From an uncultured Candidatus Saccharibacteria bacterium (GTDB taxonomy: Bacteria > Patescibacteriota > Saccharimonadia > CAILAD01 > BJGX01), in contig CAZSVP010000002.1 in the NCBI GenBank assembly GCA_964610335.1, positions 212,887 to 248,314 on the forward strand: 35,428 bases of DNA, read 5' to 3'. A program made the translations under genes and the position numbers. This document shows positions 7,524 through 35,428 of the stretch, piece by piece. The notes beneath the pieces are model-generated. The model was not told the DNA's origin. It was given only the letters and a program-made list of their open reading frames with translations, and made no database searches. Numbering within the stretch: position 1 is the stretch's first letter; every line of letters begins with the position of its first letter.

Positions 7524-7956
7524 AAAATTCACTTTGTCTATAAATGGTGCCAAGCACCCCGTTTACAAATTTACTTGAGTTGTCACCACCAAATGCCTTG
7601 GCTAGCTCAACAGCTTCATTGATGGCTACTTTGGGTGGCACTTCGCGCTTGATCATGAGCTCGTATAGTGCCATACGCAATATAGAGCGATCTATCTTGG
7701 CAATCTGTTCGATTGGCCACTCCGGTGCCGCAGGCGTAATCATGCCGTCAATCTTCTCTTGATTGTCCAATGTGCCTTTCACCAAGTCGGTGATAAAATC
7801 TTTTTCTTCAAGCGCATCAGCGTAAACAGCGATGTTGCGGCTTACTACTTCGTCAATATCAGTTTTGAGCTCTGGCATTTCCAAACTATTACGGAAATCA
7901 TACTCATATAGACTCTGGAGAGCTATGATTCGGCAAAGGTGTCGGTTGGATGCCAT
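7453..7956 (-). CDS. nusB: Transcription antitermination factor NusB (with charged C-terminal tail)
   Basis: 167-aa ORF with NusB-like helices (RIIALQSLYEYDF..., DRSILRMALYEL, VAINEAVELAKAFG, KFVNGVLG). Confidence 0.9.
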   Translation of the reverse strand: MASNRHLCRIIALQSLYEYDFRNSLEMPELKTDIDEVVSRNIAVYADALEEKDFITDLVKGTLDNQEKIDGMITPAAPEWPIEQIAKIDRSILRMALYELMIKREVPPKVAINEAVELAKAFGGDNSSKFVNGVLGTIYRQSEFYDPKEDKKAQSDKSGNEPINEEA

Positions 7957-7966
7957 ATCAGTAGTA

Positions 7967-8137
7967 TTAGTTGGCCTTGCGAACGCGGGCTATACCAAGA
8001 CTGGCAGCTCGCACTAGGCGACGGGGTACGGTTAGTTTCGAGTTTTTCTCGTACATCAGTTGTACACTTTGGAGAGAATCGTGTGAACGACGCTGCCCAC
8101 GAGTACTACTGGTACGACGTTTTTTGGGTACAGGCAT
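7967..8137 (-). CDS. rpmF: 50S ribosomal protein L32
   Basis: Absent from the supplied track because it is under 60 aa. The reverse complement reads AGGAG-acagtctc-ATG, then MPVPKKRRTSSTRGQRRSHDSLQSVQLMYEKNSKLTVPRRLVRAASLGIARVRKAN and a stop. The N-terminal xVPKxRxSxxRxxxRRxH pattern is the L32 hallmark. SD AGGAG lies 8 nt upstream. Confidence 0.85.
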   Translation of the reverse strand: MPVPKKRRTSSTRGQRRSHDSLQSVQLMYEKNSKLTVPRRLVRAASLGIARVRKAN

Positions 8138-8388
8138 GAGACTGTCTCCTAGTTAATCAGTATTACTAGAGAATGCAAGAGTGAGCTTTCAACCAGTGGT
8201 TGGCCACAAAAATTGGAGAGTACAAAATTGGTTACGGTACAAAACAAGATCTGTGACGCGACATGAGCGTTTTATGACTTTTGGCCCAAGTCGAATGCTC
8301 GTAAACAAAGCATTTCGCGATCTATACTAGCATTTTTAGGCGTTTTTGGCAATGACCACTACTTTGTTATCGGCAACACTCAGCAATA

Positions 8389-11298
8389 TTACTTGGTTAC
8401 GAAGTTTACCAGTTTGCCAGGGACCACAATGGTTTTGATAACCTCAGCATCGGCTGTCCAATTGAACTCGTCATTTTTGATACCGGCTTCGCGCTCGATA
8501 TCTTCGCGGCTTGCACCTGTCTCAACTACAAACTCTCCACGCAACTTGCCATTGACCTGTACTATGATGGTCACGACATCGTCTTTGACTAGCTCGGGAT
8601 CGTACTTCGGCCAAGCCTGCAGATGCACACTCTCAGTGTTGCCAAGATGAGTCCATAACTCTTCGGCCATATGCGGCGCACATGGAGCCAACATCAGAGC
8701 CACCATTTGCAAGGTGCGCTGTGCAAGAGCATCAAATTTCAGGCTAACAAGCTGTGTACGTACATCAGCTGAATTGAGGTAGTTAATTAGCTCCATCAGG
8801 GCAGAAACCATAGTGTTGAAATCACGCCGATCTAGACGTTCATCCACCTTCTTGAGAGTTTTATGTACCATTTGATCCACACCCACTTCAAACACACCAT
8901 CTTCAGCAGTATCAGCGAGCTCAGCTTTATTTGTCGATGCCAGATCCATGCCCAAATCCCAAACTTTGTTGAGAAAACGATTAATGCCAGCTAGCTTCTC
9001 ATCGCTCCAATCAATCGCTTGATCATATGGCCCCATAAACATCTCATACAGGCGCAAGCTATCAGCCCCAAACTTGGCAATTACTTGGTCGGGGTTGATA
9101 ACATTACCTTTACTCTTACTCATCTTGTTGCCATCAGGTGCCAGTATCATGCCATGGCTGCGACGCTTGGCATATGGCTCTGGCGTGGGTACAAATCCTT
9201 GATCGTACAAAAACTTATGCCAAAACCGTGAGTACAGAAGATGCAATGTGGTATGTTCCATACCACCGTTATACATATCTACCATCAGCCAATACTTCAG
9301 CTTGTCAGAGTCTGCAAAAGCATTTTCGTTTTGCGGATCGATGTAGCGCAAATAGTACCAGCTACTACCAGCCCAGTTGGGCATAGTATCCGTTTCACGC
9401 CTCGCTGGGCTACCACACTTCGGACAATCTACATTAACCCAATCAGTTATGGCAGCTAGCGGGCTCTCACCGGTCTCTGTTGGCTCATAGGCTTCTACAT
9501 CCGGCAACTCAACTGGCAATTGGTCCTCTGGTACTGGTACTACTCCACACTTGGCACAGTGGATTACTGGAATTGGCTCACCCCAATAGTGTTGACGGCT
9601 AAATATCCAGTCGCGGAGCTTGTACTGCACTTCTGTTTTGCCTACCCCCTCTTGTTCTAGCCAATTGGTAATTGCCTTCTTACCCTCTTCGACCGTCATA
9701 CCGTCAAACTGGCCAGAGTTAGCTAATATACCGTCGCCAGTAAATACCGGATTCTCTAACAAATCTAGCGCTTGTAGGTGTGATGTGGCTGTTAGAAAAT
9801 CTCTAAGCTCCTCTTTAGTCAGCCACCTAGTCTCGTGTTTCGTTTTTTCATCATCACTAACTTCATCTCGTTCATCATCCTTTAGTTCTACATAAAAAGT
9901 TGGTGCATGACCAAAACGATTCTGAGCCTTGGGCTCGTGATAATACTTACTATGAATCACGCCTAGTTTGTTTACAATCTTAGCGTTTTTGTAGCCAGTT
10001 TCTTCAAGAATTTCTTTGAGCACAGTTTGCTCTGGTGTAAACCCTTCATCAATACCGCCGGTTAAAAACGTACCCCACTTAGGCTCTGGCCAATATAGCC
10101 CGAGGTATTTGTCTTCCGACCAGTGTTTTATGATGGCAATTATCCCATCACTATCTTTTACTGGCTCGTCCTTACGAAACGCAGCCGTACCATCGCTTTG
10201 CTCTAGGACGGGCTCAATCACTTGTTTGATTGGTAGCCCAAACTTTTGAGCAAAGGTAAAGTCACGCTCATCATGTGCCGGCACTGCCATAATCGCACCA
10301 GTGCCATAGTCCATTAGTACATAGTCGGCCACCCAAATCGGAATGTTCTCGCGAGTAGCTGGATTGACCGCATAGGCACCGGTGAAAACCCCTGTCTTTT
10401 CACCTTCTTCCATACGCTGTACACTGCTGCGCGACTGGGTTTTTTTTACGTAGCTAACAACCGCCTTGGTTTGATCTTCGCTGGCAATTGCCGACACCAA
10501 TGGATGCTCTGGCGCTATCACCATAAAAGTGGCTCCAAACAGAGTGTCAGGCCGGGTTGTAAATACCTCTAACTTTTCATCATGGCCATCAATTGCAAAG
10601 TTGATCTTGGCGCCATAGCTCTTGCCAATCCAATTAACTTGCTGAGTGGCAATTTGCGGTAGGTAGTCGACAGTCTTGAGATCCTCGATCAGTCGGTCAG
10701 CATAGGCGGTGATTTTGAGTAGCCATTGATTGAGTAGTTTCTTTTCCACTGGCGTGTCACAGCGTTCATGGCAGCCATTTACTACTTCTTCGTTGGCCAA
10801 ACCAGTTTTACAATGCGGACACCAATTGATGGCAATTTCTTTTTGGTAGGCTAAGCCAGCCTTAAGCAGCTGCAAAAATATCCACTGCGTCCAGCGATAG
10901 TATTGCGGATCGGTAGTATTGATCTCACGACTCCAATCAAAACTCAGGCCCAACTCCTGCATCTGACGCTTGAAGGTTGCTACATTGTTGGCAGTAGCAA
11001 CTTGAGGCTTGATCTTGTGCTTGATAGCAAAGTTCTCAGTAGGCAGACCAAATGCATCCCAGCCCATAGGATAAAGCACATTTTTGCCCTTCATGCGCAG
11101 TCGTCGAGCTACTATGTCTTGAGCTGTATAGCTACGAACATGGCCAGTGTGTAGGCCATCTCCAGAAGGGTAAGGAAATTCTACCAATACATAGTATTTT
11201 TCTCGCGATGGATCATCATCAACAGCTTCGTACAGTTTGGCATCGGCCCAAATCTTTTGCCATTTGGGTTCGATTTCTTGGGGATTGTATTTATTCAT
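8389..11298 (-). CDS. leuS: Leucine--tRNA ligase carrying an extra ~155-aa Nudix-like insertion in the CP1 editing domain
   Basis: 969-aa ORF with HIGH (HTGHVRSY) and KMSKS (KMSKSKGN) motifs, CP1 editing motifs (TTRPDTLFGATF, GTGAIMAVPAHDERD) and the LRDWIFSRQHYWGEPIP segment. An extended -10 TGGTAAAAT (11307-11315) lies 8 nt upstream of the ATG. Confidence 0.95.
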   Translation of the reverse strand: MNKYNPQEIEPKWQKIWADAKLYEAVDDDPSREKYYVLVEFPYPSGDGLHTGHVRSYTAQDIVARRLRMKGKNVLYPMGWDAFGLPTENFAIKHKIKPQVATANNVATFKRQMQELGLSFDWSREINTTDPQYYRWTQWIFLQLLKAGLAYQKEIAINWCPHCKTGLANEEVVNGCHERCDTPVEKKLLNQWLLKITAYADRLIEDLKTVDYLPQIATQQVNWIGKSYGAKINFAIDGHDEKLEVFTTRPDTLFGATFMVIAPEHPLVSAIASEDQTKAVVSYVKKTQSRSSVQRMEEGEKTGVFTGAYAVNPATRENIPIWVADYVLMDYGTGAIMAVPAHDERDFTFAQKFGLPIKQVIEPVLEQSDGTAAFRKDEPVKDSDGIIAIIKHWSEDKYLGLYWPEPKWGTFLTGGIDEGFTPEQTVLKEILEETGYKNAKIVNKLGVIHSKYYHEPKAQNRFGHAPTFYVELKDDERDEVSDDEKTKHETRWLTKEELRDFLTATSHLQALDLLENPVFTGDGILANSGQFDGMTVEEGKKAITNWLEQEGVGKTEVQYKLRDWIFSRQHYWGEPIPVIHCAKCGVVPVPEDQLPVELPDVEAYEPTETGESPLAAITDWVNVDCPKCGSPARRETDTMPNWAGSSWYYLRYIDPQNENAFADSDKLKYWLMVDMYNGGMEHTTLHLLYSRFWHKFLYDQGFVPTPEPYAKRRSHGMILAPDGNKMSKSKGNVINPDQVIAKFGADSLRLYEMFMGPYDQAIDWSDEKLAGINRFLNKVWDLGMDLASTNKAELADTAEDGVFEVGVDQMVHKTLKKVDERLDRRDFNTMVSALMELINYLNSADVRTQLVSLKFDALAQRTLQMVALMLAPCAPHMAEELWTHLGNTESVHLQAWPKYDPELVKDDVVTIIVQVNGKLRGEFVVETGASREDIEREAGIKNDEFNWTADAEVIKTIVVPGKLVNFVTK

Positions 11299-11794: not shown

Positions 11795-12820
11795 CTAGAC
11801 ACGACGCAGCTTCTTGCGAGTTTTCTCAATTGCAAGGTTAACCAAGTACCTTGATTTGTTTAAAACTAAATCTTGAGCATGCAGGTACTCAACATCTTTT
11901 CCTCCAAAGCCCCGTTTAAACAGTGACACTCCAGCAAAACGATGATGTGTGTCACCCTCTGGTGCCACACCCCAGAAGTTATATCGTTGCAGACCTCGTT
12001 TTTTGGCCTCTCGTATCGCTTGCCACTGTATGGCATAAGCACCAGGATACTTACGACCAAGCTCTGTACTCGCACCGTAGTGATAGGCCGCCTCACTGCC
12101 CTGAAATATTACAAATGCTTGAGCGAGTAGCTTATCTTCATAATATGCGCTATATAACTTCACCATATCATCGGCCACAAATACTTCAAACTGACTGAGT
12201 AAGAAATTATAGCTAAAGGGCACAAATCCTTGGCGCTTAGCAGTCTCTATTTGCAAGTCGTAAAAGGCTTTCAGGTCCTTTGATTTTGTCGATTCTGTTA
12301 CTACTACGCCAAGCTTGTCGGCCTTACGTATCTCATAGCGAGTTTGCTTACGCATATCAGCCAATAGCTCAGATTCGTCTTTGCCGAGCTCAAGCTGGTG
12401 TGTGAGCTCGGCTGATAGATGCATCGGGGCCGGCCGAAAACCGGCTTTTCCAAACAGTGATCTGGAGAATTCATCACTAATCAACTGAGGTCGTACTCTT
12501 ACAAATACACAGTTGTGCTTTTTACCAATTTCACAAATCGATTGTAGCCAAGAATCTACTAGATCTTCATTGTGCCAATCAAGAATCGGCCCTCCGGCAA
12601 CCGTAAGGTATCTACCTCGCCGAGCTGGCTCCACAATAGACAAGCATATTCCAATTAGTTTATCCCCCTCATAATAACCTATTCTTTCGACATCCTTTTT
12701 CAAGGATTTGAAAAAGTCACCCCATTGCCATGATTGCAAAAAGTTTGATTCAGAGTGTTCATTTAAGAAATCATCCCATTCTTTTTGGCTTTTGACGACT
12801 TTGGTAGTTACTGCTGACAT
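11795..12820 (-). CDS. FemAB-family peptidoglycan interpeptide-bridge peptidyltransferase (FemX-like)
   Basis: 341-aa ORF with FemAB-family hallmarks (FLQSWQWGDF near the N-terminus; YHYGAS...PGAYAIQW; RYNFWG). It overlaps the upstream DegT gene by 13 nt. Confidence 0.8.
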   Translation of the reverse strand: MSAVTTKVVKSQKEWDDFLNEHSESNFLQSWQWGDFFKSLKKDVERIGYYEGDKLIGICLSIVEPARRGRYLTVAGGPILDWHNEDLVDSWLQSICEIGKKHNCVFVRVRPQLISDEFSRSLFGKAGFRPAPMHLSAELTHQLELGKDESELLADMRKQTRYEIRKADKLGVVVTESTKSKDLKAFYDLQIETAKRQGFVPFSYNFLLSQFEVFVADDMVKLYSAYYEDKLLAQAFVIFQGSEAAYHYGASTELGRKYPGAYAIQWQAIREAKKRGLQRYNFWGVAPEGDTHHRFAGVSLFKRGFGGKDVEYLHAQDLVLNKSRYLVNLAIEKTRKKLRRV

Positions 12821-28302: not shown

Positions 28303-28330
28303 TTGACTTATCACGTTTTTATGATATTAT
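28303..28330 (+). promoter_or_regulatory. Sigma70-type promoter TTGACT-16-TATTAT of GC-rich cassette B
   Basis: Read directly. It is followed by a ~45-nt 5' UTR containing a direct repeat ATCAGAAC (28343-28350 and 28362-28369), and by SD GGAG 4 nt before the ATG. Confidence 0.6.
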
Positions 28331-28380
28331 TGCTGTCAGCGAATCAGAACACAAGGTTTTGATCAGAACCCTGGAGCACA

Positions 28381-28728
28381 ATGCGTACCTATTCTTATCC
28401 CTACAAGCAGCCCAGCAACTACTTGGTCTCTGGTGGACGCTGCGACGGAATGGCTGTCGATCGCGAGGCACTGGAGCGCTTCTGGCGCGGTGGCCTCACC
28501 GAGGCTGGCAACGCCTTCATCGACGCAGTCTTCAGCTTCCATGAGGTATATGCCCTGGAATGTGCTTTCATGCACTGTGTCATCCGCGTCCATACCACAA
28601 CGCCGCTCAATGAAGAGCGCAAGGTGTTGCTCGATCGCCTCTTCGAGCTGATGGACAACCTGCAGAGCTGGGCCTTCGCGCAAGACGCTCGCTCCGAGAT
28701 CATCGAGGTCAATCAGGCCTCGATCTAG
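28381..28728 (+). CDS. GC-rich orphan ORF, 115-aa cytosolic hypothetical protein (cassette B)
   Basis: The frame is supported by SD GGAG (28373-28376) and by G/C at the third position of 86 of 115 codons (hand count). It has its own promoter and terminator. No family recognised. Confidence 0.6.
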   Translation: MRTYSYPYKQPSNYLVSGGRCDGMAVDREALERFWRGGLTEAGNAFIDAVFSFHEVYALECAFMHCVIRVHTTTPLNEERKVLLDRLFELMDNLQSWAFAQDARSEIIEVNQASI

Positions 28729-28729
28729 C

Positions 28730-28771
28730 CCCGCTCACCTACCGCAAAACCTGCCGGGTGGGCGGGTTTTT
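28730..28771 (+). terminator. Rho-independent terminator of cassette B, convergent with the ftsA 3' end
   Basis: CCCGCTCACC...GGTGGGCGGG stem (one G-U pair) followed by TTTTT. The ftsA stop codon is 4 nt further on the opposite strand. Confidence 0.65.
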
Positions 28772-28774
28772 GCA

Positions 28775-30082
28775 TTATAATGACAATGTGCGGCTAAGTC
28801 GCTGCATAACCGACTCACCCAAGCTCTCACTCCCTACTACATCGAGCCCCAGATTGGCCAAGCCCATCGGCGTTATATCTTGCGGGCTATGCAAACTGTC
28901 GGTGGTATCTATAACATGATTGACATCGCGAGGCATCACAAAGCTGATGTTGGGCTTGCGCACAAACGGCAAGCCCTTGTGCCAATCGGTCTCATTGAGG
29001 GCATGTTTGATCTCAGGCAAACCGCTACCACCACCGCAAAGCATGATGCGAGTAGGCAGATGATCGAGCCGCTCAAACTCACTAAGTGCCAGTTCTACCC
29101 CACTCAGCCAGGTCTCAACATCGGTCTCAAGGGCTTTACTTACTTGTCGATCTTGGCTTTCGCTAAGTTTGCCAGCGGCGTGTTTGAGCTTGAGCTCTTC
29201 GGCTTCGTCGAAGCTTATACCAAACTCATTGGCCAGCCGCTTAGTAAAGCTGCGCCCACCGATTGCAAACATCTGGGTACCCTCTACACCACCGTTGTTT
29301 ACCACTGCGATGTCGGAGGTTCCGCCGCCAATGTCTATAAATATGGCGCTGAACTCTGTGCTATCGTCGGTACCGACTGACTTAGCCACCGCAAATGGCT
29401 CTGCAGCAATATTGATAAGATTGAGATCTAGATCAGCCGCGACAGTTTGGAGCGCTCCTAAATGAACCATAGGAGCAAAAGCATTGAATACTTGAATAGT
29501 GACATCGCGACCTTGGAACCCGACTGGATTGGTAACACGATAGCCATCGATGGTGACATCCACAATTGCAGCATTGACTAGCTTAACTTCGAGCTCGTCG
29601 TTGCCAGTTTCCCAGCTGAGCTGTTTACGAACCTCCTCGAAAGCTTGTTTTTGGATCCGCTCGATTATATCCATCAGCTCAGTTTGGTCTATTTTGACAT
29701 CGGGCTTGTTGCGCCGATAGCTCACCGCGGTAGTGCCTCCGCGCACCAACTCACCAGCTATTCCTATTACGGTGTCTTTGGCAACTAACCCAGCCACTTC
29801 CTCGGCTTGACGCAACGCGGCATCACAGTTCTCTACCACTCCTGATATGTCAGTGACTGCTCCGCCAGCCATGTCAGTGAGACGCTGTCGCTGCTTGCCA
29901 CTACCTATAATCTCTACAACTTCACGCTGCTTGCCAGTCTTATGATCCTTCTGATTGGAAACTTTGCCAATCAGTGCTTTGACGTACTCAGTACCAATAT
30001 CGAGCGACACTATATACTGTGGCCCATCTGGTTTCTTGGGAGATGATTTTTTACTCGAAAACTTTGGCAGGTGAAATTTCAT
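28775..30082 (-). CDS. ftsA: Actin-like ATPase, cell division protein FtsA family
   Basis: 435-aa ORF with phosphate-1 SLDIGTEYVKALIG, phosphate-2 IFIDIGGGTSDIAVV and adenosine motif IMLCGGGSGLPEI. No ftsZ lies downstream in this window. Confidence 0.78.
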   Translation of the reverse strand: MKFHLPKFSSKKSSPKKPDGPQYIVSLDIGTEYVKALIGKVSNQKDHKTGKQREVVEIIGSGKQRQRLTDMAGGAVTDISGVVENCDAALRQAEEVAGLVAKDTVIGIAGELVRGGTTAVSYRRNKPDVKIDQTELMDIIERIQKQAFEEVRKQLSWETGNDELEVKLVNAAIVDVTIDGYRVTNPVGFQGRDVTIQVFNAFAPMVHLGALQTVAADLDLNLINIAAEPFAVAKSVGTDDSTEFSAIFIDIGGGTSDIAVVNNGGVEGTQMFAIGGRSFTKRLANEFGISFDEAEELKLKHAAGKLSESQDRQVSKALETDVETWLSGVELALSEFERLDHLPTRIMLCGGGSGLPEIKHALNETDWHKGLPFVRKPNISFVMPRDVNHVIDTTDSLHSPQDITPMGLANLGLDVVGSESLGESVMQRLSRTLSL

Positions 30083-30585
30083 ATGCTTATGTAATAGTGT
30101 AGCTGTTATTGACCTATAGTGCCAGGTCTATGCCCGATATAGAAATAGATCTTTTTTGTCTTTCGCTCCAAGCTTCGCTTACTGGAGCAAGCTTCTTTTG
30201 ATGGACCAAAAGAAGCCAAAAGTCCTTTGGCACGGACGCATTACAGGAGCGTTCAACAACTTCAACTTTCTGGTTTGGCCGCTGTGCCAAAGATTGGACT
30301 CGCGCTCTGCAACCAGAAGTGTCAAAGTTCTTTCACTTCCTGATTGCTTTAGTGCCATTAAGGATCTTAAATTCGGCATTAAAGCCAACTGTAAAACAAA
30401 CTAGTTTGAATGCTTACAAGTGAGGACTGTCCGAAGAACGCTAGTGATGAGTTCCGCAGCTTGGAAAGTGAAAGCTAGCTTGTTGCTACAGTTTGGTGTC
30501 CATGCCGTTGGGTTTTGCGCCGCTTTTGACCAAGTAAAAGCGGATCGACCCTTAAGGACGAAATTCCTTGCTAAAAAAGTTATGG

Positions 30586-30614
30586 TTCAAACCAACAATT
30601 CCATCTGCTATACT
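30586..30614 (+). promoter_or_regulatory. Candidate promoter TTCAAA-17-TATACT of cassette C
   Basis: Read directly, ~38 nt upstream of the ATG. SD GAGGAGG lies at 30641-30647. Confidence 0.4.
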
Positions 30615-30652
30615 TACCTCACCCTGAAAACCAAAGAGACGAGGAGGTTGTT

Positions 30653-31495
30653 ATGTCTCCGTCGGAGGACTTTCACAGACTTGAAACTGACCTGGCCGAT
30701 GCCGAAGGGATCATTGCCCAAGAGGCCGCCGAGCTGACCGACCAGGCTGCCGCTAGGTGGCAACGTGAGCTCGATCGCATGCTTGAGCCGATCCTCGGCA
30801 AGTACGTGCGCGAAGATCCATCGGAGTACAGCTGGACAGTGCGCAACAGTGCCAATCTCATCACTTTGGGACGTGGACTGCTCACCCTGGCACTGTTCTT
30901 CCCGATGCGCCGGGCCCGCAGCTACCGCATGCGAGTGCTGGTGGCAGTGCTGGCACTGATCGTGATTGCCTTCGACCTGGTCGATGGTGGGGTGGCTCGC
31001 AAGCTGCGCATCACCAGTGTTTTCGGCAAGGCAATCGATCCGCTGATGGACAAGCTGTTCTTCGTGTTGATCGGCTGGGCCACGCTCGAGATCTTCCGTG
31101 GCGGGGACAACAAGTTCTACTACCGTCTGCTGCAGCTGCTGTTTGCCATCGCTGCTGCACTGGAGCTCGATGTGGCCATCAACGGCACGCAGCAAGGAAT
31201 CTTGGCCTGGCGCTGCGACCGACTGGAGCCCGACAACAAGGCCAAGCTCACTGGTGCAACCGGCAACGGCAAGATCAAGTTCCTGATGCAGGTTGCGGCC
31301 GTTGGAGTCGCTCTGTTCACACCCGATCTACGCAAGGCGCTGATCAGGTTTGCAGCGCTGCTGGGCATCGCTACCGTGTTCAGTCGCCGCAGCAATCATG
31401 ACCACCGCGAGGAGGTCGTGGCGCTCAAGGCCGAGCTGCAAGCTCGCAAGTCACGTGTCAACAAGACGGTCGCCTATGGCCAATCAGCCGGCTAG
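30653..31495 (+). CDS. CDP-alcohol phosphatidyltransferase-family membrane protein (GC-rich cassette C)
   Basis: Exact family signature D(x)2DG(x)2AR(x)8G(x)3D(x)3D as DLVDGGVARKLRITSVFGKAIDPLMD (nt 30974-31051). There are ~6 TM helices, an unusual ~60-aa soluble acidic N-terminal extension and a strong SD GAGGAGG. Confidence 0.85.
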   Translation: MSPSEDFHRLETDLADAEGIIAQEAAELTDQAAARWQRELDRMLEPILGKYVREDPSEYSWTVRNSANLITLGRGLLTLALFFPMRRARSYRMRVLVAVLALIVIAFDLVDGGVARKLRITSVFGKAIDPLMDKLFFVLIGWATLEIFRGGDNKFYYRLLQLLFAIAAALELDVAINGTQQGILAWRCDRLEPDNKAKLTGATGNGKIKFLMQVAAVGVALFTPDLRKALIRFAALLGIATVFSRRSNHDHREEVVALKAELQARKSRVNKTVAYGQSAG

Positions 31496-31512
31496 CGATT
31501 TCAGGCATTATT

Positions 31513-31563
31513 GATCCACCTCGGCTCCTACACCAGGGAGCTGAGGTGGATCGACCTGTTTTT
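31513..31563 (+). terminator. Terminator of cassette C
   Basis: 16-bp stem GATCCACCTCGGCTCC-tacacca-GGAGCTGAGGTGGATC (one G-U pair), then cgacctg and TTTTT. Confidence 0.6.
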
Positions 31564-31643
31564 ATACTGTTACTAGTAATTACACCATATTTGTAGTACT
31601 ATTTGTTTCACCAACTTCTCTGTCGACAACAAGGGGGTAATCC

Positions 31644-31985
31644 GTGAGAAGAGCACGTTCATGGGGCAAGGAGTTCTGGGCCATCATGCGCAACGTCTAC
31701 AGTTGCGATGACACGCTCACCGAGCTGATCATCAGCGACAACGATCAGTACTGCGGCGAGTGCGAGCGGCACACCAAGCCCAAGGTGGATATCGAGCGAG
31801 TTCTGCGCTGCGACCACTGCGAATCTCGATTCGCCTGGCTGGTGGATCTCCATGGTTCGAGCGATCTGGGGCGGATCCTGATCCTACGACATGGCCATCA
31901 GCTCGAGCAAGTCCCGGCTCTCGCCAAGCACCACCAAATCGCCCAGCGTCGCAGTCATCTGCGCCACACCGTCAAGGCGCGCTAG
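31644..31985 (+). CDS. GC-rich small zinc-ribbon protein, 113 aa (cassette D)
   Basis: GTG start 6 nt after AAGGGGG. An alternative in-frame ATG lies at 31686. Two CxxC pairs (CGEC, CDHC) ~15 aa apart suggest a zinc ribbon, and the C-terminus is basic and His-rich. No clear promoter found. Confidence 0.5.
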   Translation: MRRARSWGKEFWAIMRNVYSCDDTLTELIISDNDQYCGECERHTKPKVDIERVLRCDHCESRFAWLVDLHGSSDLGRILILRHGHQLEQVPALAKHHQIAQRRSHLRHTVKAR

Positions 31986-31998
31986 CGCGCCACCATAG

Positions 31999-32050
31999 GC
32001 CTCTGCCAGATAGCAAAACGACCTTCGCTACCCGGCGGAGGCTCGTTTTG
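31999..32050 (+). terminator. Terminator of cassette D
   Basis: GCCTCTGCC...GGCGGAGGC (or the inner CGACCTTCGC/GCGGAGGCTCG) stem followed by TTTTG. Confidence 0.5.
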
Positions 32051-32068
32051 TATCTGTAGACTATCTAT

Positions 32069-32097
32069 TTGACAAATGTTTGTTTTTATAGTATAAT
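32069..32097 (+). promoter_or_regulatory. Perfect consensus sigma70 promoter TTGACA-17-TATAAT (cassette E)
   Basis: Read directly as TTGACA aatgtttgtttttatag TATAAT. The ~68-nt 5' UTR contains the hairpin CTTTCTCC-aatg-GGAGAAGG. Confidence 0.75.
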
Positions 32098-32165
32098 CTG
32101 TTAACTTTCTCCAATGGGAGAAGGGCGGAGTAAACCCCAATCCCATCAAGCACCCAGGAGGAATC

Positions 32166-32780
32166 ATGGGGGGAAGTTCATTGAAGACAGCAAAACCACA
32201 CGTCCCCGGACAGGAGGCGATGTGGCTCGCACAAGGAGCTCGGAGCTGCTGCAGCGAATGCGGCATCATCTCGCTCTACGTCAGGCACGGCGATCTCTGT
32301 CCAGGTTGCGGACTGGAGTTCGTCACGGCAGGTCCGATCACGGACACCACCGACAACTGGCGTGCGATCGATCGCTTCGGCGCCGACTACTTCGAGCTGC
32401 CACTCCAGGCAGAGCTCGAAGCCGCCAAGCACGCCCACCAACTAGCTCGGCAACGCGGGTACTGGCTGATCAGCATCGTAGGATTGATGCTGGTTCTGGC
32501 ACTGGTGTTCGGGGTGATGTGTTTCATCAACGCCACCACCAACCCCGTCACCTGCGAAGGTGAGCAGACCATCCAGCTCACCCAGTCGCAGCTGGATCAG
32601 GCCGGTGGCAGCACCATGGACCTCACCAAGGCCATCGCAGCCGATGAGTTGCCCAGCCCCGGCTACGACCAGTTCGAGGTGGCACGGTACATCGACCAGA
32701 TGAACCCCCAACTCGAGGCCAAGGCCAACATCGGCGACAGCGTCACCATCCCGGCCCGCTGCTACCGCGCCAGCGACTAG
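32166..32780 (+). CDS. GC-rich membrane-anchored zinc-ribbon protein with extracytoplasmic C-terminal domain, 204 aa (cassette E)
   Basis: SD AGGAGG 4 nt before the ATG. N-terminal CCSEC...CPGC zinc ribbon and one TM helix (YWLISIVGLMLVLALVFGVMCFI). The ~80-aa C-terminal domain weakly resembles LysM (ARYIDQMNP...IGDSVTIP). Confidence 0.65.
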   Translation: MGGSSLKTAKPHVPGQEAMWLAQGARSCCSECGIISLYVRHGDLCPGCGLEFVTAGPITDTTDNWRAIDRFGADYFELPLQAELEAAKHAHQLARQRGYWLISIVGLMLVLALVFGVMCFINATTNPVTCEGEQTIQLTQSQLDQAGGSTMDLTKAIAADELPSPGYDQFEVARYIDQMNPQLEAKANIGDSVTIPARCYRASD

Positions 32781-32805
32781 CAGCAAGCCCTCGCGGACAA
32801 GGACT

Positions 32806-32843
32806 CGAAAAGAGCCCCTGCCCCGCGGGGGCTCTTTTCGTAT
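32806..32843 (+). terminator. Terminator of cassette E (bidirectional type)
   Basis: Perfect 13-bp stem CGAAAAGAGCCCC-tgccccgc-GGGGCTCTTTTCG, a GC core flanked by A- and T-tracts. Confidence 0.7.
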
Positions 32844-32883: not shown

Positions 32884-33465
32884 ATGATTATGTACAAAAG
32901 TGAATTTGAAACACTACCGTTTAGTACTCCAGTGGTATTTGCAGACGGTACCAAGTATTGGAATGACTTAAGTAAGAAATTTATTCAACACAAGCGTGGT
33001 TTTTTTATTCTTGGTCCTTCTGGCTCGGGCAAAACACATTTTGTAAAAAGTCAAAAAGAAAAACATTGGATAGATGGCGACAAACTTTGGGAATCGTCAA
33101 AAGCGCACCCGCAGGGTGAATGGTGGCTCGAAAGTGGTGAGGTAATTCAAAAGATTGATCAGCGAGCTGATGTTATGACCGTACAAGCGATGATGCTTGG
33201 ATTCTGGATAATTGGCGCATCGAACCAATTCTTAAAACCAGATGCAATAATTATTCCCCATTGGGCTACACACAAGAAATATATTCGTCACCGCGAGCAA
33301 CATGGCTACGACGGTGGTGCCAAATCAGATGCATTTGATCAGGTATTGTGGCATCGTAACTGGATACTACAATGGGCCAAAAAGGGAGTACCAAAATTCA
33401 AATCTGCGTTTGATGCTGAAAAGTATCTACTCGAAAAGTACAAAAAAGAGCTTGGCTTAGCTTAG
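32884..33465 (+). CDS. P-loop NTPase / kinase-like protein
   Basis: 193-aa ORF with Walker A GPSGSGKTHF and low GC like the core genome. Given the -10 position, the true start is more likely the second ATG at 32890 (a leaderless mRNA). Confidence 0.7.
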   Translation: MIMYKSEFETLPFSTPVVFADGTKYWNDLSKKFIQHKRGFFILGPSGSGKTHFVKSQKEKHWIDGDKLWESSKAHPQGEWWLESGEVIQKIDQRADVMTVQAMMLGFWIIGASNQFLKPDAIIIPHWATHKKYIRHREQHGYDGGAKSDAFDQVLWHRNWILQWAKKGVPKFKSAFDAEKYLLEKYKKELGLA

Positions 33466-34410
33466 TCCGGTTACTTCAAACTCCCGACCTTTAATCTTTG
33501 AAGTGGCCTTACCGTCCTTGTGAACATTGATAGACACACCAGCAGTCTTATCGACACCTAAATATGTATCCATGGGTTTGTCTAGAACAAATTTCTTCAA
33601 GTAGGGGCTAATGTTGTCATAGTGTCCAATAGCCCAAACAATTACTCTTCGACCAGGATTCATGTTGTGATGTTGCTGAGCAAATTGCTCAACCTTAGAA
33701 ACAAATGCGTTTACTCTCTGGGCAATTTCCTCTGGGCCCTCAGCACCTAGTTCAATACGCTTATCTCGATCTTCGCCTTGATCATTCTCATATGCTACCC
33801 ACAGTTGTTCCTCACTTACTGGCGAAAGACCTGTGCCGGAGTTTAAAGAAAGATCCGTCACTTCTTCTTGAGGCATATACTTTTCCTTTAGATACTGTAA
33901 ATAACCTTCATCACTAGTAAGAATCTGCAAATCAACCAACTCTGAAACTTCAAAGGGTCCGCCGCCAACTGAAGAGATGTTGTTAATGAGTTGATTATAT
34001 GGTACACCATGACTCTCCATTTCGGATCTTATAGCTGTAAGTGTTTCGTCGCCAGACAAAACCGCTCTTTGTAGACTACTTTCTAGTCCGCTTGGAGTAG
34101 TTAGACGAACATTTGAAGCAAACACCAAGATATCTACCTGGCCTAGTTCCTCTGGGCTCATACCATCAAAAGCTTCTCGAAAGAAAGACGATGCCGTTTC
34201 TCGAGCTAGTTGAGCAGCCTCAGGTTTGAGCGTACCAAATTCTGCAGATTCTGGGTCTCGAATATCTCGAGAATTAACTTGCAAAACTATGAGCGTACCA
34301 TCCGCTTCAGGTAATTTCTCAGCCGCCAGTAAGTCCTCTACTTTGATCTTGCCAATCTCTCCACCATTTGGCTTGTTTGGTTCTGGTAAGTTTAATCCTT
34401 CGGTTGTCAT
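33457..34410 (-). CDS. Hypothetical protein, paralog family A (317 aa)
   Basis: SD AGGAGG 3 nt upstream of the ATG. Its C-terminal ~100 aa align with the partial ORF at 35040-35428 (GAEGP..IA.R....IW..HYD..SPY.K......G..I.V.KDG.A...I.G.E). Confidence 0.65.
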   Translation of the reverse strand: MTTEGLNLPEPNKPNGGEIGKIKVEDLLAAEKLPEADGTLIVLQVNSRDIRDPESAEFGTLKPEAAQLARETASSFFREAFDGMSPEELGQVDILVFASNVRLTTPSGLESSLQRAVLSGDETLTAIRSEMESHGVPYNQLINNISSVGGGPFEVSELVDLQILTSDEGYLQYLKEKYMPQEEVTDLSLNSGTGLSPVSEEQLWVAYENDQGEDRDKRIELGAEGPEEIAQRVNAFVSKVEQFAQQHHNMNPGRRVIVWAIGHYDNISPYLKKFVLDKPMDTYLGVDKTAGVSINVHKDGKATSKIKGREFEVTGLS

Positions 34411-34441
34411 ACCCCTCCTAGTCCGTTAATTGCTGTAATTA

Positions 34442-34469
34442 TTGTCATTTTAGCATAGTGCTTTATACT
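34442..34469 (+). promoter_or_regulatory. Promoter TTGTCA-16-TATACT, 6 nt upstream of the ATG (leaderless-type)
   Basis: Read directly. The ATG at 34476 begins 7 nt after the -10 box. Confidence 0.55.
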
Positions 34470-34475
34470 ACTACT

Positions 34476-35036
34476 ATGAAAGACAATATTCCCACTGAGC
34501 CAGTAATTAAGTACTTCGGCTTTGGTACCAACAAAGACCGTGACATGATGGAACATATGGTCGGCCGCAAAGGTCTGCTAGGCGAGCCTGCCAAGTTACC
34601 TGGTTACCAAGTCTGTACTAGCCTGGCCAAAGACTTTCGTAAAGAAATACCTCCCGATAGTCCGTCCCCTGATAGGTCGGCTTACGATATTTTGGCTAAT
34701 GGCTGGGGTCCAGACTTTGAGATGTACTGCTCAGTTCCAGATAAAGATGCAGTTGCATACGGCACCCTTTGGTATTTGACACCACTAGAGCTAGCTCTTT
34801 GCCGTGAATGGGAGTTGGTTGATTATGGTTGCCAAGAAGATGCCTATGGAGTTGCAATTACAGAATCTGGTGACAAAATACCTATAATTACACAAAGTTT
34901 TATGAGGCCACCCTTCAAAATACACAAGAAAGTTGATGGGTCAGACTACCCCGCCTACGTGGCCGACAAAGCTGCCATGCTAAAGACTGCCGATGAGTCC
35001 AGGGAGAGCTACATCAAATTACACAAGCAAGCTTAG
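34476..35036 (+). CDS. Gamma-glutamylcyclotransferase (GGCT/AIG2-like) family protein
   Basis: The N-terminal YFGFGTNKDRDMM matches the YGS(N/L) motif region of the GGCT/AIG2 fold, with a conserved acidic region (REWELVDYG). The start is placed at ATG 34476 (MKDNIP...) rather than the track GTG at 34458, which lies inside the promoter spacer. Confidence 0.65.
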   Translation: MKDNIPTEPVIKYFGFGTNKDRDMMEHMVGRKGLLGEPAKLPGYQVCTSLAKDFRKEIPPDSPSPDRSAYDILANGWGPDFEMYCSVPDKDAVAYGTLWYLTPLELALCREWELVDYGCQEDAYGVAITESGDKIPIITQSFMRPPFKIHKKVDGSDYPAYVADKAAMLKTADESRESYIKLHKQA

Positions 35037-35039
35037 CAG

Positions 35040-35428
35040 CTAATTTGATTCTTTCCGGCCTTTAACTGGCACCGGATATTCTTTGCCGTCAATTATTGTA
35101 TTGGCCGAACCGTCTTTGGCAACTTTGATGTTAATGCCACCCCCATACTCAACTCGCAATGGGTCGTCCGGACTCATATTGAATAAGTTGAATTTTACGT
35201 AGGGGCTGAGTGTATCGTAATGAGTACCGGCCCAGATTATCAGTCTGTCATCTTCGTTTCCAACCTTAGAATGGTAAAGCTTGGCATAGCGAGCTAAAAC
35301 ATCGATTGAATGCTGAAAACGATCTGCTATTTGGATTGGACCTTCTGCACCCATAGCTTCACGTGTCTCCTTGCTATGTTCACCTTCAAAATCAATCCAA
35401 AAATCCAGATTTATACCGCCATGTTTTT
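35040..35428 (-). CDS. Hypothetical protein, paralog family A (5'-truncated by the window edge)
   Basis: The reading frame stays open upstream of the track Met to the window end (KNMAVINLDFWIDFEGEHSKETREA-MGAEGP...). It is homologous to the C-terminal part of 33457-34410. Confidence 0.6.
   Translation of the reverse strand, partial: KHGGINLDFWIDFEGEHSKETREAMGAEGPIQIADRFQHSIDVLARYAKLYHSKVGNEDDRLIIWAGTHYDTLSPYVKFNLFNMSPDDPLRVEYGGGINIKVAKDGSANTIIDGKEYPVPVKGRKESN

Follow-up and report, generated by a model that had tools for sequence, protein, structure and literature searches.

We analysed a window of 35,428 nucleotides (nt) from an uncultured Candidatus Saccharibacteria bacterium (assembly GCA_964610335.1, contig CAZSVP010000002.1, positions 212,887 to 248,314), in which four GC-rich open reading frames (ORFs) lie around the division gene ftsA. 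The four, here called c1 (28381-28728), c2 (30653-31495), c3 (31644-31985) and c4 (32166-32780), are all on the + strand, and ftsA (28775-30082, - strand; Pfam FtsA 4e-15, TIGR01174 1e-31) serves as the anchor of the locus. The genes flanking the cassette region are ftsA, ruvX, yceG, obg and alaS, of which ruvX and yceG form a block. The source is a Saccharibacterium: the window's FtsA is 74-77% identical to the FtsA proteins of about a dozen Saccharibacteria metagenome-assembled genomes and about 50% identical to those of more distant Saccharimonadales. Below, W denotes the window's own strain and L numbers denote contigs or loci of its relatives.

The GC content at third codon positions (GC3) is 0.750 in c1, 0.747 in c2, 0.754 in c3 and 0.795 in c4, against a mean of 0.414 (standard deviation 0.043, range 0.32-0.51) for the 29 remaining ORFs of the window, among which ftsA has the maximum of 0.507. 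An earlier note on this DNA had described the four as far richer in GC than their surroundings, and as outliers with z = 7.8-8.9 they are. Their total GC is 0.58-0.62, compared with 0.46 for the whole window. In all four the GC content of the codon positions falls in the order GC3 > GC1 > GC2 in the annotated frame, and the first and second codon positions and the amino-acid usage are shifted too: GC1 is 0.59-0.65, and the ratio of arginine to arginine plus lysine, R/(R+K), is 0.64-0.82 in the cassettes and 0.15-0.55 in the other tabulated window genes. The non-coding DNA between the ORFs has a GC content of 0.26-0.40, terminator stems excluded. The note's picture of a 'low-GC core block' around the cassettes holds for the remaining contrast but not for uniformity, as ftsA (GC3 0.51) and a 534-amino-acid (aa) gene (0.47) occupy the top of the native range. 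Two other observations of the note were reproduced: every long ORF from 6 to 30082 is on the - strand, and only the four GC-rich stretches contain long spurious ORFs in the remaining frames and on the opposite strand. None of the alternative-frame and antisense long ORFs within the cassettes matched a Pfam family, so nothing suggests that the cassettes are misread pieces of known genes.

A metagenome-type assembly with sharp GC transitions raises the question of whether GC-rich reads of another organism were stitched into a Saccharibacteria contig during assembly or binning. However, independent assemblies of several samples (L001, L002, L094 and L095) gave the identical sequence, and the junctions recur in at least nine independently assembled samples and in three strain lineages (L001, L002, L083-L085, L094, L095 and L101-L103). 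W and L083 are 89% identical over 2307 nt spanning c2-c4 and their spacers, with divergence continuous across the junctions, and the synteny of c2 with ftsA extends across species. We regard such an artefact as exceedingly improbable.

We located expression signals by consensus scans of the sequence, so that promoter-like and terminator-like sites are predictions throughout. The first unit has a promoter-like site at 28303-28330 (TTGACT-16-TATTAT, with a TG before the second hexamer), which falls within a segment absent from L083, and a terminator-like hairpin, placed at 28750-28762 by the scan, that together with its T run covers 28750-28772. Upstream of c2, a promoter-like site at 30586-30614 (TTCAAA-17-TATACT) is collinear in all strains, and the 19-pair terminator-like hairpin downstream of the gene (31511-31554) is conserved with compensatory changes in L083, L102, L096 and L099. 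For c3 the scan found a terminator-like hairpin at 32022-32041 and no promoter-like site on the + strand. The c4 promoter-like site at 32069-32097 (TTGACA-17-TATAAT) matches the consensus at 12 of 12 positions and is identical in L083 and L102; the gene is followed by a terminator hairpin at 32806-32840 (AAAAGAGCCCCTGC...GCGGGGGCTCTTTTC), for which the scan reported 32820-32832. All of these sites are on the + strand, and a Shine-Dalgarno sequence precedes each of the four ORFs. The positions that the note had given for promoters, Shine-Dalgarno sequences and hairpins were thus recovered, as was its failure to find a promoter for the third cassette. Pfam and NCBIfam scans of the neighbouring ORFs revealed no integrase or transposase family, and no attC-like site and no long direct or inverted repeat was found around the units, again in line with the note.

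The GC-rich units at this locus and in relatives follow one plan: a strong promoter-like site within AT-rich upstream DNA, then a Shine-Dalgarno sequence, a GC-rich ORF and a GC-rich terminator hairpin. A hairpin of the form AGAGCCCCYGC...GCRGGGGCTCT stands 3' of three unrelated GC-rich ORFs from different species, namely c4 (hairpin at 32806-32840), an ORF shared by L012, L013 and L016 (hairpins at 12608-12631, 12638-12661 and 11017-11040, respectively) and an ORF of L090 (hairpin at 314-341), with no further copies in the 183 loci compared. We considered this GAGCCCC...GGGGCTC terminator as the mark of a mobile family and found it suggestive but non-diagnostic, as it is common in Actinomycetota and in many other high-GC genomes.

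The c2 gene encodes a 280-aa CDP-alcohol phosphatidyltransferase. Its product matches PF01066 with 57 bits (cut-off 22; E 4e-15) over profile positions 2-151 of 152 and contains the complete catalytic motif, D108-x2-D111-G112-x2-A115-R116-x8-G125-x3-D129-x3-D133. It scores well below every NCBIfam equivalog cut-off, including those of TIGR00560 (PgsA; 42.8 versus 109.1) and of the actinobacterial PIP synthase (19 versus 170), and is therefore classed at the superfamily level only. Among solved structures, c2 and its closest homologs (type A, see below) match only Staphylococcus aureus PgsA (7DRJ, E 2e-4). Saccharibacteria have been reported to encode enzymes of the PGP-synthase and PI-synthase types, which were assigned to phospholipid head-group exchange in the analysis of a soil Saccharibacterium genome (PMC6031116). 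Judged by its family, c2 probably adds a head group to CDP-diacylglycerol.

The relatives of c2 fall into three types. We call type A the homologs that are 51-98% identical to c2; metagenome contigs and three NCBI assemblies were their only sources, and the type-A gene adjoins ftsA, within a Saccharibacteria gene neighbourhood, wherever the contig extends that far. Of 14 close relatives, 11 have a CDP-alcohol phosphatidyltransferase gene of type B or C divergent to ftsA, with a GC3 of 0.37-0.54. Types B and C share only 27-33% identity with c2, yet they align over their full length. The catalytic residues do not vary among 13 type-A sequences or between types A, B and C, which also have in common the motifs YxxxDPxxYxW..RNxAN, GAxxxGK[IV]KFxLQ and FSxxSNxxHRxE beyond the catalytic core. 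An N-terminal extension of about 60 residues and a C-terminal FSRRSNHDHREEV motif are specific to this Saccharibacteria family. Among the three weak structure matches of type B, S. aureus PgsA was again the best (E 7e-5). The organisms that carry type A are slightly nearer to the window than those with type B or C, as measured by Obg and a methyltransferase; together with the ftsA synteny, this identifies type A as the ortholog belonging to the window's clade. A scan of metagenome contigs for further type-A relatives yielded only two short contigs, and a wider profile built from types A and B gained only generic CDP-OH transferases. Because its homolog is ftsA-linked in nearly all relatives and shares family-specific motifs over the full length, c2 is, by its sequence and context, native to the lineage and not foreign to the locus. 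The 570-nt spacer between ftsA and c2 was searched for traces of a displaced native CDP-OH gene and of WhiB, a gene that occurs near ftsA in some relatives, and contained neither.

The two genes that follow are orphans. The 113-aa product of c3, which always lies directly 3' of c2, has two CxxC pairs (C37-x2-C40 and C56-x2-C59) that are invariant in seven of seven aligned sequences, including that of L096 at 52% identity; c3 belongs to an 18-member protein cluster, all from the same lineage. The 204-aa product of c4 has an invariant N-terminal ribbon (C28/C29-x2-C32 ... C45-x2-C48), a variable hydrophobic helix (approximately residues 100-121) and a C-terminal domain that is conserved, as are two of its cysteines; an exhaustive HMMER search of 1.84 billion representatives returned a single relative cluster, at 69% identity. 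Neither ribbon matched a Pfam model, and both have their CxxC pairs at ribbon spacing; c3 and the N terminus of c4 are accordingly spoken of here as predicted zinc ribbons. The AlphaFold model of c4 (pLDDT 55) was too poor for a fold search. By eye, its C-terminal domain, which ends ...GDSVTIP, looked LysM-like, but no test supports this assignment. Both c3 and c4 are present throughout the subclade of W and were not detected outside it. For c2 and c4, as predicted membrane proteins, a role in an envelope or host-interaction module, as proposed in the note, is plausible.

The remaining cassette, c1, lies between the 534-aa gene and ftsA and encodes a putative 115-aa orphan, whose coding status is suggested by its codon-phase composition and its expression signals. 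It had no Pfam or NCBIfam match, its AlphaFold model (pLDDT 47) was too poor for a fold search, and a word-indexed search of 5.8 billion protein clusters returned only c1 itself; its one known relative is a single near-identical variant. With its promoter and terminator, c1 spans about 500 nt in W, where L083 has 75 nt instead, and the outgroup L099 also lacks c1 at that site. Since both lack it, c1 represents a gain in the window's strain. Its arrival with a GC3 already at 0.75 fits cassette exchange among related strains better than fresh capture from a genome of 65-70% GC.

The earlier note had proposed that all four cassettes were recently acquired or compositionally insulated. The synteny comparison of the ftsA locus, also proposed there, found c1 absent in L083 and L099 and a c2-type gene in nearly all relatives, so that recent acquisition holds for c1. 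It does not hold for c2-c4, which diverged strains and species share in a GC-rich state and whose divergence tracks that of ftsA. L083 is a strain of the same species, with an FtsA 99.8% identical to that of W and about 8% DNA divergence across the region. Between the two, dN/dS is 0.10 for c2, 0.18 for c3 and 0.20 for c4, and the dS of c2-c4 (0.18-0.62) lies inside the range of the flanking genes; the low dN/dS and matching dS indicate that c2-c4 are protein-coding in the annotated frames, evolve under purifying selection and have co-diverged with their surroundings, and hence are older than the strain and species splits. Nucleotide identities of c2 and ftsA are likewise close, at 0.920 and 0.914 between W and L083 and at 0.848 and 0.831 between W and L099. 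The type-A genes of six lineages (W, L083, L102, L099, L100 and L096) have diverged to only 59-84% identity at third positions, yet all have a GC3 of 0.70-0.81. This persistence despite divergence means that the GC-rich state is old and has been vertically inherited in the subclade, not recently acquired.

We then polarised substitutions by majority rule and parsimony among three strain lineages (W, L083 and L102). In c2, c3 and c4 pooled, 147 changes were GC-to-AT and 73 AT-to-GC (binomial p = 7e-7), whereas the controls ftsA and alaS gave 185 and 190 (p = 0.84); the difference between cassettes and controls was significant (Fisher p = 4e-5), and simulation of a stationary composition gave a GC-to-AT/AT-to-GC ratio of about 1.16. 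The unrelated GC-rich ORF of L012, L013 and L016 (GC3 0.87-0.89 in a genome of 0.41 GC) showed 52 versus 24 changes, with no asymmetry in its neighbours. The cassettes are out of compositional equilibrium and are losing GC, like acquired DNA, and in view of this net loss the GC excess looks like a decaying relic. The note's view that the cassettes have the composition of acquired DNA is upheld in so far as they are out of equilibrium with a GC-losing flux; no donor or mobility genes were found to complete it. Among more distant type-A orthologs, GC3 is 0.77 in L097, 0.63 in L098, 0.59 in L090 and 0.43 in L086, in genomes with a core GC3 of about 0.36-0.6. The L086 protein keeps a GC-type amino-acid signature, with R/(R+K) of 0.68, despite its GC3 of 0.43, which suggests a GC-rich ancestor followed by decay. 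The locus is conserved in relatives and the closest homologs fall within the lineage, two findings that in part match what the note would have set against acquisition; the composition is not uniform, with GC3 ranging from 0.43 to 0.81.

Other GC-rich orphan ORFs, mutually unrelated and with a GC3 of 0.69-0.89, lie as single-gene units near ftsA in relatives: L098 1553-1924, L090 7960-8469 and 369-698 (both - strand), L097 1381-1827, L012 12113-12574, L013 12024-12605 and L016 10502-10984. That of L098 (GC3 0.76) is unrelated to c1 but has its site and orientation. Between the CHAP gene and obg, L089 and L090 have a GC-rich ORF that is missing from L086, and downstream of ftsA they have a GC-rich zinc-ribbon ORF, whose ortholog in L086 has a GC3 of 0.47. 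Low-GC orthologs of some such ORFs are found in L086 at 7545-8042 (GC3 0.49) and 8183-8536 (GC3 0.47). The ORF of L012, L013 and L016 encodes a small membrane-anchored protein with conserved cysteines. L097 belongs to a GC-richer relative (contig GC 0.56; GC3 0.62 for an alaS fragment). From these comparisons, the flanks of ftsA are a hot spot of gene gain and loss.

In two relatives the hot spot contains a WhiB gene (L097 140-418 and L098 3391-3651), located between ftsA and the type-A gene and abutting or overlapping the type-A start. Their products match PF02467 (1e-14 to 1e-15) as well as WhiB structures from Streptomyces and Mycobacterium, and are 40-51% identical to actinophage WhiB. A literature search found nothing on WhiB encoded by Saccharibacteria, nor on GC-rich cassettes. 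Outside Actinobacteria and their phages, WhiB-like proteins are not known to occur. The WhiB genes of the two relatives, which lie outside the window, show that genes of actinobacterial or actinophage type can reach the locus, and they are the only direct evidence of genes entering it from the host world.

The WhiB genes thus speak for a recent direct transfer of the cassettes from a high-GC actinobacterial host or its phage, the donor suggested in the earlier note, as do the actinobacterial type of the composition, the recent gain of c1, and the GAGCCCC...GGGGCTC terminator after c4 and other GC-rich ORFs, which is common in Actinomycetota. For c2, however, such an origin is rejected, as the family is Saccharibacteria-specific and ftsA-linked: its closest homologs are from Saccharibacteria, with a pairwise E of 3e-30 to type B, whereas matches to any actinobacterial genome are 2e-7 or weaker and limited to the catalytic core. 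Together c2, c3 and c4 are old and co-diverge with ftsA. No homolog of c1, c3 or c4 outside the lineage was found in the collections searched, and for c1 and c4 this extends over the 5.8 billion clusters and 1.84 billion representatives, respectively, although Actinobacteria are heavily sequenced. In addition, c1, c3 and c4 had no match in 50,697 phage genomes (tblastn) and no relatives in 2.9 million viral contigs of IMG/VR, searched with the c1 sequence and the c3 and c4 alignments, so that neither an actinobacterial nor a viral donor appears to be visible for them in these collections. The other reading frames of the cassettes, as said, match no known family, and the promoters are AT-rich consensus sigma-70 sites. 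Taken together, these data make a recent transfer from an actinobacterial host or its phage very unlikely.

The main rival holds that the GC richness was made or is maintained within the ORFs, by selection on codons or mRNA or by GC-biased gene conversion at a recombination hot spot, so that a foreign origin would not be required. Several observations favour such compositional insulation. As a native ortholog, c2 nevertheless varies in GC3 by lineage (0.43, 0.59, 0.63 and 0.70-0.81), and the level of 0.70-0.81 has been kept in six lineages whose third positions have diverged to 59-69% identity; the implied equilibrium GC3 is about 0.6-0.65, compared with about 0.5 in the neighbours; the GC excess ends at the ORF boundaries; ftsA, which lies between cassettes, has the highest native GC3; and recombination at the locus is evident. 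On the other side, the net flux favours AT significantly, so that the present level is no equilibrium, and the shifts in GC1, GC2 and amino-acid usage are not predicted by selection at the codon level. Tracts of biased conversion should ignore start and stop codons, and we know of no mechanism that is confined to an ORF. The L086 protein, with its GC-type signature at a GC3 of 0.43, likewise points away from insulation and to a GC-rich ancestor with subsequent decay. We consider compositional insulation unlikely.

The explanation we favour, to which we give about an even chance of being correct, is that c1-c4 are lineage-restricted accessory genes in self-contained units, GC-rich historically and now decaying. 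Each unit would consist of a Shine-Dalgarno sequence, an ORF and an intrinsic terminator, three of them with a promoter-like site, set into native AT-rich DNA on both sides of ftsA. Under this explanation, c2 would be the lineage's version of the ftsA-linked CDP-alcohol phosphatidyltransferase; c3, a soluble zinc-ribbon protein, and c4, with a zinc ribbon, a membrane helix and an outer domain, would be orphans co-inherited with c2; and c1 would be a later, strain-specific gain. The GC richness would have been present already in the common ancestor of W, L083, L102, L099, L100 and L096, and would have been inherited vertically since then and eroded by normal mutation pressure. Its simplest origin would be lateral acquisition, which for c2 would have been an allelic replacement, from a GC-richer source before the subclade of W diversified. 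The source was probably related Saccharibacteria with a circulating pool of cassettes, and for c2 must have been another member of the same Saccharibacteria family, with the ftsA flanks acting as a preferred landing site. Some cassettes may have come from the high-GC host world, given the WhiB genes at the same site in relatives.

A number of points weigh against this explanation. No donor has been found for any cassette, and type A is absent from 185,579 species-representative genomes. The third-position flux of 89 versus 40 (a ratio of 2.2) falls below the ratio of 3.7-4.8 obtained by simulating neutral decay to a GC3 of 0.42-0.50; it implies an equilibrium GC3 near 0.6-0.65, and some force may be retarding the decay. 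The GC3 of c2 orthologs runs from 0.43 in L086 to 0.81 in L100, a spread that would require very unequal decay rates if there had been a single old acquisition. Between the ORFs the GC content does not exceed the native level, and in L096 the c2-c3 spacer is already AT-rich, a pattern that block transfer from a GC-rich genome would not predict. Finally, the polarisation is by parsimony from three lineages and few genes, and the GC survey covers the loci compared. A more elaborate scenario, which we regard as quite unlikely, would combine these elements: a cassette pool circulating among Saccharibacteria and fed at least partly by actinobacterial hosts or their phages would land preferentially on the two flanks of ftsA, its ORFs would be partly held GC-rich in a compositional regime limited to them, and the genes would make up a host-interface set that includes a re-coded lipid head-group transferase.

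The 570-nt spacer between ftsA and c2 holds a further variable feature. W and L083 could not be aligned over it because a central segment (30130-30575, about 420 nt) is inverted: W, L099 and L100 have the segment one way and L083 and L102 the other, with the spacer flanks (the ftsA start and the c2 promoter, which lies outside the flipped segment) collinear in all strains. The segment contains no ORF and no Rfam match, and neither long terminal inverted repeats nor a nearby recombinase was found. In an alignment of five sequences, 25 of 106 predicted pairs show compensatory changes. The segment may represent an invertible element or a flipped non-coding RNA gene. Its hairpin core (30422-30459) reads, on the + strand, GAGGACTGTCCGA, a variable hairpin and then GAGTTCCGCAG, and conforms to the pattern GAGGACTGTYCGA-[hairpin]-RAGTYCCGCMG. 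The long closing stem differs in sequence in every copy and keeps its complementarity, that is, it covaries. At least 119 stretches of species-representative genomes, from very different phyla, contain the exact pattern, with many copies per genome in Thauera and Azoarcus and one to three in Gracilibacteria, other Saccharibacteria, Elusimicrobia, Myxococcota and others; the copies include loci L313, L347, L379 and L304-L383. A second conserved hairpin module (CTTTGGTTACTTTCT...AGAAAGTAAC) is often found downstream. The GAGGAC strand of the core folds better and has more G-U pairs, an asymmetry that points to RNA. No Rfam 15 family matched the window spacer or 15 other copies, no clear case of a protein consistently encoded beside the core hairpin emerged when we looked for one, and a literature search found nothing on the hairpin sequence.

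Strains also differ in gene content directly 3' of c4 (window 32884-35354 versus L083 11131-15206). W and L102 have a P-loop protein and paralogs there, the ORFs at 33457-34410 and 35040-35354 being related (38% identity), and in L083 and L101 the place is taken by a block of four genes, in which PPDK_N, HATPase_c/MORC-S5 and PEP-utilizer domains occur. The locus has here a second region that varies, perhaps a defence island. In a comparison of window positions 28775-30082 with L012, L013, L016, L086 and L090, the divergent pair of ftsA and the CDP-OH gene was found inverted as a unit relative to the block of the 534-aa gene, ruvX and yceG in some species, which is a further sign of a recombinogenic locus.

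The cassettes resemble several known systems in part. Horizontally acquired genes and islets reportedly ameliorate towards the composition of their new genome, a concept credited to Lawrence and Ochman. As in such islets, the atypical composition is strongest at third positions, the flux runs towards the composition of the genome, presence varies among relatives (for c1 and other GC-rich ORFs) and the products are orphan or narrowly distributed. Unlike the usual case, in which the islets are AT-richer, the cassettes are GC-richer than the genome; their deviation is confined to single ORFs within native-looking AT-rich control DNA, c2 is the positional ortholog of a gene in relatives, and the searches revealed no donor, mobility gene or flanking repeat. 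Phage morons are extra prophage genes with their own promoter and terminator and a deviant composition. The cassettes are likewise single genes with their own terminator (and a promoter-like site in three of four), deviate in composition, lie between conserved genes and are present in some relatives and absent from others, but they stand outside any prophage, in the flanks of ftsA, ruvX/yceG, obg and alaS, and have no phage or viral matches. Like integron cassettes, c1-c4 form a same-strand array of short, unrelated and mostly orphan ORFs; in contrast to them, they have no attC-like site, integrase or Pc promoter, and each has its own terminator, with a promoter-like site in three. The c2 protein shares its profile match and complete catalytic motif with PgsA and other PF01066 enzymes, the nearest structure by sequence being that of S. 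aureus PgsA, but differs in scoring below the equivalog cut-offs and in having its own N-terminal extension and C-terminal motif.

Saccharibacteria are obligate epibionts with tiny genomes, and to our knowledge little is known of how they gain and retain new genes. The locus described here is a concrete, repeatedly used insertion hot spot beside a core division gene. Its accessory genes are GC-richer, not AT-richer, than the genome, and their measurable decay signal could be used to date them. That the lipid enzyme is native to the lineage illustrates that a striking GC island need not mean an origin in the host. The restriction of the unusual composition to the ORFs, and the structured non-coding element that is flipped beside c2, are independent leads. 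If the cassette pool is partly derived from Actinobacteria or their phages, as the WhiB genes of relatives may indicate, the locus would be a place to study gene flow from host to epibiont.

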